Positions 40,777 through 41,737 of a stretch of DNA of 45,266 bases are shown here, in pieces. Location of the stretch: positions 1 through 45,266 of the IMG/VR virus record IMGVR_UViG_2718217897_000001. One strand, written 5' to 3'. Every line of letters begins with the position of its first letter. Position 1 is the first letter of the stretch. A program made the position numbers and the translations under genes. The DNA is from a virus (Duplodnaviria > Heunggongvirae > Uroviricota > Caudoviricetes). The notes below the pieces were generated by a model. It had not been told where the DNA came from. It saw only the letters and a program-made list of their open reading frames with translations, and made no database searches.

Positions 40777-41550
40777 TCAAAAATTAGGTGAGTAACGGAC
40801 CGGGGACATAGCTCCTTTTTTTCTTAATTCATCTGGTATTTTTTTTCCAAGATAAAGATTTGCTATTTCAGGTGGGGCTTCTCGACCTTCAAAACCATAG
40901 CGAGAACTTTGTGTTGCCTCAAAGTCCGGATCCTCGTCCCAGTATTTCATCGTAGGGAAATTTTCACGTGTTGATTTGAGCCATTTATCAGCAATGAAAA
41001 CCCCTCGAACGATCCCCCTCACAGTAGCAAGAATGACTTCTGCTTGGCTGGCGCGAGAGACATTAATGCGCCAGCTAAATCGAACCGCATCATAAAGCTC
41101 TGAATCCTTTGCACTTCTGTTAACGGAAATCATTAATGCTTTATGATGAAATGTTATGGTTTCGGGTTGATATGTTGCTATCAACTCTTTGACATGCGCG
41201 GCGCCGAATTCATTGCTGCCAGCACCATTCATGATATTCGTTAACCCAGGGTAGGCATCAATAAGTGCTGCTTCAACTTCGTACGCCGTCTTTTCATCAG
41301 TCATTCCGTGTCGATGGATGACATGGATAACCTCAAGTCCTGCTAACCTTATTTCTCTAATTTGCTTTAGCTTGTTGCTCAGTAACTCGTCATCATCAGT
41401 CGCTGCCACTTCACCGCGCATATGGGCAAATACGCGGTTACCTTTGCCTTTCCCTACATAGAAGGTGCTTCCGTCCCTCGGATCAATCAATCGGTATACA
41501 TACCAGCCAAGGTGTTCAATTACTCCAGAAGGAAACTCAGTAATATCCAT
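40777..41550 (-). CDS. GIY-YIG nuclease-domain protein with an uncharacterised C-terminal domain
   Basis: N-terminal GIY-YIG-like motifs (GWYVYRL ... [11 protein letters not shown], then conserved R and E). ATG at 41550; the track ORF begins with TTG at 41601. Occupies the position held by mcrA in e14. Confidence 0.55.
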
Positions 41551-41737
41551 TTTGCAATATCTATGAATTATTTGTGAGACGTATATTAATGAACATTGCA
41601 AGGACTCACAACCAGTAGTGTTGAGAAAACCATCGGGGAAATGAGGCTAAGCCTTTGAATTTATATAGTACAAAAAAGATACTTTTCCTCATAATGTGAA
41701 TTAATTTTATGTTTCGTTTGATGATTGGACCGGTCTC

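Follow-up and report, generated by a model that had tools for sequence, protein, structure and literature searches.

In a window of 45,266 nucleotides (the whole stretch of DNA analysed here), the minus-strand gene behind the pin invertase encodes a protein almost identical to PD-T4-3/CMoRE, a single-protein enzyme whose description and crystal structures are published, and as such is already known rather than new. The protein would almost certainly act as a stand-alone type IV modification-dependent restriction enzyme with the mechanism carried over from CMoRE, and we hold this transfer with high confidence because the two proteins are 98.4% identical and every named functional residue is kept. 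A stand-alone restriction or modification-dependent enzyme was among the functions offered for the gene in a preliminary description, and it is this option that the match to PD-T4-3/CMoRE bears out. Identity, motifs, context and distribution come from our analysis, and the enzymology and phenotype from the literature; hmC/ghmC-dependent cleavage and direct T-even immunity are predicted for the window allele from this closely related enzyme.

The gene lies 60 nt past the pin stop and is convergent with pin. Its minus-strand open reading frame (40777..41601) gives 274 aa when read from a TTG and 257 aa when read from an in-frame ATG at 41550; position and size range are as first described. We take the 257-aa form to be the real coding sequence and the 274-aa TTG form only a mechanical maximum, because it is at the ATG that the RefSeq CDS, both sets of profiles (PADLOC and PHROG) and the protein used for crystallisation begin. 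The RefSeq CDS, which sits in a genome 100% identical across window 40089..45266, is WP_000355484.1, named “LEM-3-like GIY-YIG domain-containing protein.” Coordinates of the gene and of its surroundings are collected in Table 1.

Table 1. Features of the CMoRE gene and its neighbourhood, in window coordinates.
Feature	Position	Strand	Basis
pinE-type serine invertase of tail-fibre inversion switch	40162..40716	+	Pfam Resolvase and HTH_7; RefSeq pinE
Hairpin at left cassette boundary, AAACCGTAGCACG-16 nt-CGTGCTGCGGTTT	40716..40760		Fold z=-4.5 against shuffles
CMoRE / PD-T4-3 coding sequence, 257 aa	40777..41550	-	PADLOC, PHROG, PDB and Pfam matches
Acidic lid-loop codons D52-D53-D54-E55 (autoinhibitory)	41386..41397	-	Computed residue positions
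R39 codon	41434..41436	-	Computed residue position
GIYxY-YIG motif codons Y17, Y19, Y31 (G15-W-Y17-V-Y19 ... F30-Y31-V-G33)	41452..41502	-	Computed residue positions
Upstream in-frame extension to TTG, probably untranslated	41551..41601	-	RefSeq, profiles and crystal construct start at 41550
Upstream non-coding cassette part, presumed native promoter (inferred)	41551..41748	-	blastn breakpoints; O157:H7 native-promoter activity
Imperfect second copy of hairpin left arm, CGAAAACCGTAGGCACGTAGTATGC; right cassette boundary	41737..41761		Repeat comparison, breakpoints
EcoRII-type type II R-M, separate system	41912..44636		Pfam, NCBIfam, PADLOC, PDB
Dcm-family methyltransferase	41912/41954..43387	+	NF007772, 927 bits
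EcoRII endonuclease	43422..44636	-	EcoRII-N, EcoRII-C; PDB 1NA6, E=3e-243, full length

A domain search, proposed earlier as a check, matched the protein end to end with the PADLOC PD-T4-3 profile PDLC04031 (E=2.4e-140, residues 1-256 against a 256-position model) and over residues 1-257 with phrog_5356 (PHROGs, E=2e-143). The GIY-YIG nuclease domain read from its N-terminal signature is upheld by Pfam PF22945 LEM-3_GIY-YIG (residues 28-110, E=2.1e-14, 54.2 bits against a curated cut-off of 27), which places the protein in the GIY-YIG superfamily; the generic GIY-YIG model PF01541 stays sub-threshold (13.9 bits, cut-off 22.6) and the NCBIfam search returned zero models, such that the protein is named only by the LEM-3-like Pfam model, PADLOC and PHROGs. 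Just two distinct sequences were found in the PDB, both deposited as “GIY-YIG domain-containing protein”: CMoRE of E. coli O157:H7 (9U75/9U8D, E=3.7e-172, 98.4% identity) and of APEC O1 (9U7U/9U7Z, E=1.1e-150, 85.2% identity), each aligned ungapped over 257/257 residues.

The window protein departs from 9U75 at four of the 257 residues (T51A, E55D, Q169K, N197H), all of which miss the named functional residues, and only two of which, 169 and 197, lie in the C-terminal part. Y17, Y19, Y31, R39, D52-E55, R80, V92, L96 and Y127 are all kept, and W16-Y17-V18-Y19, F30-Y31-V32-G33, R39 and E91/E93 are identical to the crystallised sequences; of these we assign R39 and E91/E93 by position as the putative catalytic Arg and Glu, both of which the text of PMC12923530 leaves unnumbered. 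Residues 44-62 hold a loop with four consecutive acidic residues at 52-55, which read DDDE in the window protein, DDDD in O157:H7 and DDDE in APEC O1, so that E55 is common to the active APEC O1 protein. Family profile, GIYxY-YIG motif, acidic loop, Y127 with V92/L96, and single-component distribution thus all place the protein in PD-T4-3/CMoRE. The O157:H7 and APEC O1 enzymes share its 257-aa length, two-domain architecture and single-gene organisation, and the GIYxY-YIG motif, the oligomer-interface residues and the Y127 position of crystallised CMoRE are identical in it; apart from the four substitutions relative to 9U75, the difference is one of setting, as the window gene lies in an ssrA-integrated e14-family prophage beside an EcoRII R-M system. 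The window allele (T51, E55, Q169, N197) might possibly differ in substrate range from the crystallised enzymes.

PD-T4-3 was discovered by functional selection (Vassallo et al., 2022; PMC9519451), and Liu et al. (Nat Commun 2026; PMC12923530) trace it to ECOR68. The portion of the text of Vassallo et al. that we examined mentions a GIY-YIG nuclease generically among the domains found and does not contain the name PD-T4-3 (PMC9519451); the ECOR68 attribution therefore rests on the CMoRE paper (PMC12923530). There, the CMoRE gene alone was enough to make T2, T4 and T6 plate roughly 10^5-fold less well, and T4(hmC) was restricted and T4(C) spared. Purified CMoRE binds and cuts 5hmC and 5ghmC DNA and neither C nor 5mC DNA, cleaving at a loose CN11/N9G site, requiring two modified cytosines, and leaving 2-nt 3' overhangs (PMC12923530). 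An N-terminal GIYxY-YIG nuclease domain is joined by a flexible linker to a C-terminal 5hmC/5ghmC-sensing domain, a new fold for which the authors found no homologue by sequence or fold (PMC12923530), in keeping with the C-terminal region having earlier been called unassignable. Mutagenesis established the roles of Y17, Y19, Y31 and the catalytic Arg and Glu, a 15-residue acidic autoinhibitory loop inserted between alpha2 and alpha3 covers the active site, the V92S/L96S mutant showed the tetramer to be essential, and the 5hmC hydroxyl bonds the Y127 main chain (PMC12923530). Independent work found that PD-T4-3 deletion in its native host, clinical isolate NILS69, made the strain sensitive to Tevenvirinae, and that a 48%-identical Capnocytophaga homologue degraded modified and not unmodified T4 DNA. 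This distant homologue also cuts Mu mom-modified DNA, from which the substrate range of CMoRE may exceed hmC/ghmC.

Carried over to the window, the enzyme would form a tetramer (a dimer of dimers) in which one dimer would read two modified cytosines ~21 bp apart, and its N-terminal GIYxY-YIG domain (Y17, Y19 and Y31 with the Arg and Glu, and Mg2+ or Mn2+) would cut between them at CN11/N9G, giving 2-nt 3' overhangs. The acidic lid loop (DDDE 52-55) would repel ordinary DNA, such that unmodified and 5mC host DNA would be spared; T-even phage DNA would be degraded within minutes of entry and the infected cell would survive, amounting to direct immunity. We infer that the two neighbouring systems would be complementary, EcoRII hitting unmodified CCWGG DNA, and CMoRE hitting the hmC/ghmC phages that escape EcoRII. 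In a simple sigma-70 promoter and terminator scan of 40600..42000, no signal exceeded what shuffled sequence gives, and the CMoRE gene had no convincing promoter. The O157:H7 gene is active when cloned with its native promoter, and the APEC O1 allele gives weak defence from its own (PMC12923530); given the latter, CMoRE activity in situ could be low.

The gene appears to travel as a small cassette. Of 5426 complete E. coli genomes, 1060 (~20%) carry segment 40700..41950 at no less than 90% identity, and at least 80% of it is covered in 798 of the 1060 (~800 with pin-CMoRE and the upstream region), whereas the whole pin-CMoRE-Dcm-EcoRII block is present in 240 genomes only. In an O157-like strain (locus L003) the cassette stands behind pin, with unrelated DNA from the window-equivalent of 41748; in two other strains it stands behind a lambdoid-prophage tfa, followed in one (L004) by Dcm/EcoRII and in the other (L005) by an ImmA/HTH/BRO-N module and then, further on, by retron Ec48. 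One ~1 kb cassette encoding the same WP_000355484.1 is thus found behind pin or lambdoid tfa with three different downstream neighbours, and we regard it as a mobile unit of ~1.03 kb (40716..41748/41761), predicted to function as a single-gene system. CMoRE and Dcm/EcoRII are independent, given that the cassette is found after tfa too and in genomes without the R-M pair; and because CMoRE is inactive on 5mC DNA, it is compatible with, and not dependent on, the adjacent methyltransferase.

Three other explanations of the gene have to be weighed. The least implausible, a free-standing GIY-YIG homing endonuclease (Seg/I-TevI-like) that spreads by cutting a specific site in genomes without the gene, had been suggested at the outset, and would account for a small cassette in different prophage backbones, for the “putative homing nuclease” label on full-length homologues in the jumbo phages OBP and N1M2, and for a weak match to phrog_314, “homing endonuclease.” That match, however, is marginal and partial (residues 17-149, E=0.0021), the labels are annotation by domain alone, and the cassette edges coincide with a conserved prophage hairpin, fitting ordinary inter-prophage recombination. 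Homing is made highly improbable by the near-identical protein itself, which lacks a strict target, cutting at the loose CN11/N9G site, needs hmC/ghmC, and depletes the whole T4 genome, and which carries at its C terminus a sensor of DNA modification in place of the DNA-binding domain of I-TevI-type enzymes (PMC12923530).

A functional coupling to Dcm/EcoRII, with CMoRE as a second nuclease restrained by the methyltransferase or as a Vsr-like T:G nickase, is harder still to credit. The two genes do diverge from a shared 360-bp intergenic region, and a link to the methyltransferase had been implied in the preliminary description, but the cassette is mostly found without Dcm/EcoRII, in the numbers given above, and is followed by unrelated genes in L003 and L005. 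Vsr genes usually overlap the dcm 3' end; the CMoRE gene instead sits ahead of the methyltransferase gene and is transcribed away from it, and Pfam and NCBIfam scans returned zero Vsr-family matches, so the earlier view that this is not a Vsr-type nuclease holds. The gene is also non-toxic in BL21(DE3), described as naturally lacking the system, and in K-12, and the enzyme fails to bind or cut C or 5mC DNA (PMC12923530). Equally far-fetched is the early proposal of an abortive-infection nuclease that destroys host and phage DNA once triggered, although many single-gene prophage nucleases behave in this way. The CMoRE 4A loop mutant loses specificity, cuts ordinary DNA and is toxic, but wild-type cultures, carrying alleles 85-98% identical to that of the window, keep their normal growth when infected at MOI>1, and the read depth of host DNA stays constant as the whole T4 genome is depleted, a direct, non-abortive immunity that is stated for the original ECOR68 system as well (PMC12923530).

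The reading of the gene as a type IV enzyme invites comparison with McrA (EcoKMcrA) of e14, which occupies the same slot right after pinE at the prophage end and is likewise a type IV modification-dependent enzyme that consists of one protein and targets modified cytosine. McrA is methyl-directed, according to its RefSeq product name, whereas CMoRE ignores 5mC; the mcrA gene lies on the opposite strand to that of CMoRE, and the two show no sequence homology past the pin stop. McrA is an HNH enzyme, and HNH families are absent from the Pfam scan of the CMoRE-gene protein at E<=1. CMoRE is functionally like McrA and not a member of the McrA family, as the catalytic domains are unrelated. The PvuRts1I/AbaSI family also reads a pair of hmC/ghmC with a spacing of ~20 bp and cleaves at a set distance within that interval to leave short 3' overhangs, but with a different nuclease fold; CMoRE, a GIY-YIG domain with a sensor that has no detectable homologues, is not a member. 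From other GIY-YIG enzymes, namely UvrC (N-terminal domain), the type II enzymes Eco29kI/Cfr42I, the homing endonucleases I-TevI/Seg, and LEM-3/ANKLE1, CMoRE is set apart by its extra tyrosine (GIYxY), by an acidic stretch of 15 residues inserted between alpha2 and alpha3, and by its sensing C-terminal domain; it is neither a repair enzyme, a type II enzyme nor a homing enzyme.

The ssrA, e14-family and EcoRII context of the gene is not discussed in PMC12923530, from whose text the word “prophage” is absent. The mcrA position assigned earlier is confirmed: blastn homology to K-12 e14 stops at window 40717, one base past the pin stop, and mcrA (plus strand) is the next gene after pin in e14, where the window has CMoRE (minus strand). 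Against K-12 by blastn, ymfM/ymfN, aaaE-beeE and jayE-ymfQ-stfP are 97-98.5% identical, and tfaE-stfE-pinE 90-93%, with pinE itself at 93% nucleotide identity. The matching blocks of the window, four or five at 90-98.5%, fall at 11659..12062, 22215..23952, 36612..38273 and 38864..40717. The window holds a complete e14-family prophage, and by this comparison e14 looks like what deletions have left of such a phage, with the window showing its full-length relative.

The e14-like slot therefore stands, with one correction to the preliminary description: the integration site is ssrA and not, as in e14, icd. The tmRNA gene (ssrA) lies at 44865..45227 (minus strand), its 3'-terminal 28 bp (44864..44891) are repeated at 4121..4148, extendable to ~40 bp with 2 mismatches, and a tyrosine integrase gene (5008..6180, minus strand) lies just inside the left repeat, so that the element spans ~4149..44863 (~40.7 kb). 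CMoRE and the EcoRII R-M system lie inside the prophage, at its ssrA-proximal end. The R-M pair is EcoRII-like and divergent from the CMoRE gene, as had been noted; more exactly, the methyltransferase gene is divergent from CMoRE and convergent with the EcoRII endonuclease gene, whose product is, on inspection, identical to PDB 1NA6 at most aligned positions. A second element, to the left of this repeat, encodes a ParB-like protein (1..897), a large serine recombinase (887..2443) and a P4-type integrase (2726..4036); two elements at ssrA amount to a tandem island accretion. A 259-aa ORF (4187..4966, minus strand) that separates the left att repeat from the integrase gene, and so is cargo at the prophage end opposite CMoRE, matches phrog_7259 only (function unknown, E=5e-86), with no Pfam or PADLOC match.

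At its pin-proximal end the cassette is delimited by the hairpin of Table 1, which separates the convergent pin and CMoRE genes and may act both as a terminator and as a homology patch for recombination. By blastn, the sequence shared with lambdoid contexts begins at 40716, and the right breakpoints fall at 41748 against L003 and 41761 against L005. The same hairpin motif (AAACCGYAGNCACG..CGTGCTGCGGTT) occurs at every cassette boundary; in the lambdoid contexts it is present three times, bounding two cassettes (L004 at 6000, 7023 and 10168; L005 at 6000, 7020 and 9695). Together with its downstream backbone, the hairpin is found after tfa in 4039 of the 5426 genomes, with as many as 8 copies in one genome; examples of its position just past tfa remnants are an effector-carrying prophage of O157:H7 at ssrA and the terminal part of K-12 Rac. 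The simplest reading is that of a conserved late-operon-end sequence supplying homology for cargo exchange between prophages. A stronger proposal, that the slot distal to the tail-fibre genes, behind pin in the e14 family and behind tfa in lambdoid prophages, is a general defence-cassette exchange site delimited by copies of the hairpin, possibly itself a specific recombination substrate, with CMoRE, McrA, EcoRII R-M, the ImmA/HTH/BRO-N module and T3SS effectors as alternative cargo, strikes us as unlikely when taken as a whole.

Two other origins of the boundary motif were considered. One of the cassette-flanking repeats resembles a hix/gix half-site; as Pin invertase pseudo-sites the repeats were rejected, since the motif also bounds the cassette in lambdoid prophages without pin. 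As an ssrA att remnant, the hairpin motif shows a likeness confined to GAA(A/C)CCGC. In L004 and L005, an att-arm fragment and ssrA core (window 44696..44892) are fused to the hairpin at a GAA(A/C)CCGC microhomology.

Published work already covers the enzyme, from structure and mechanism to phage range and distribution, and PADLOC, a standard defence finder, labels the gene at once. The value of the present analysis is one of annotation: the RefSeq name “LEM-3-like GIY-YIG” hides a characterised anti-T-even type IV restriction enzyme carried by about one-fifth of complete E. coli genomes. In addition, e14-family prophages with McrA or CMoRE in one slot illustrate functionally analogous cargo, of unrelated folds, at a prophage hotspot.

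Other observations concern defence and host range more broadly. A complete Kiwa system lies within the prophage at 16824..18235 (minus strand), composed of KwaA (17714..18235; PDLC00216, E=1.9e-83) and KwaB (16824..17708, minus strand; PDLC00225, E=2.3e-150), bringing the defence systems of the prophage to at least three (Kiwa, CMoRE and EcoRII R-M). Retron Ec48 in L005 (10023..12009; NZ_CP104114, a lambdoid prophage near ybhB-bioA) lies ~3 kb from the CMoRE cassette, a further clustering of defence distal to tail-fibre genes. Upstream of pin, the tail-fibre segment 38262..39961 is reversed in NZ_CP066839 (L001) between flanks that are 99.9-100% identical, consistent with a host-range switch that Pin actively inverts. 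Jumbo phages (ON287376; MK994515, Serratia phage Moabite; MF285618; JN627160, Pseudomonas phage OBP; MN642089, Klebsiella phage N1M2) also encode CMoRE homologues, full-length at 97-99% coverage and 38-45% identity, under the labels endonuclease or “putative homing nuclease,” and may deploy them against competing hmC-modified phages.
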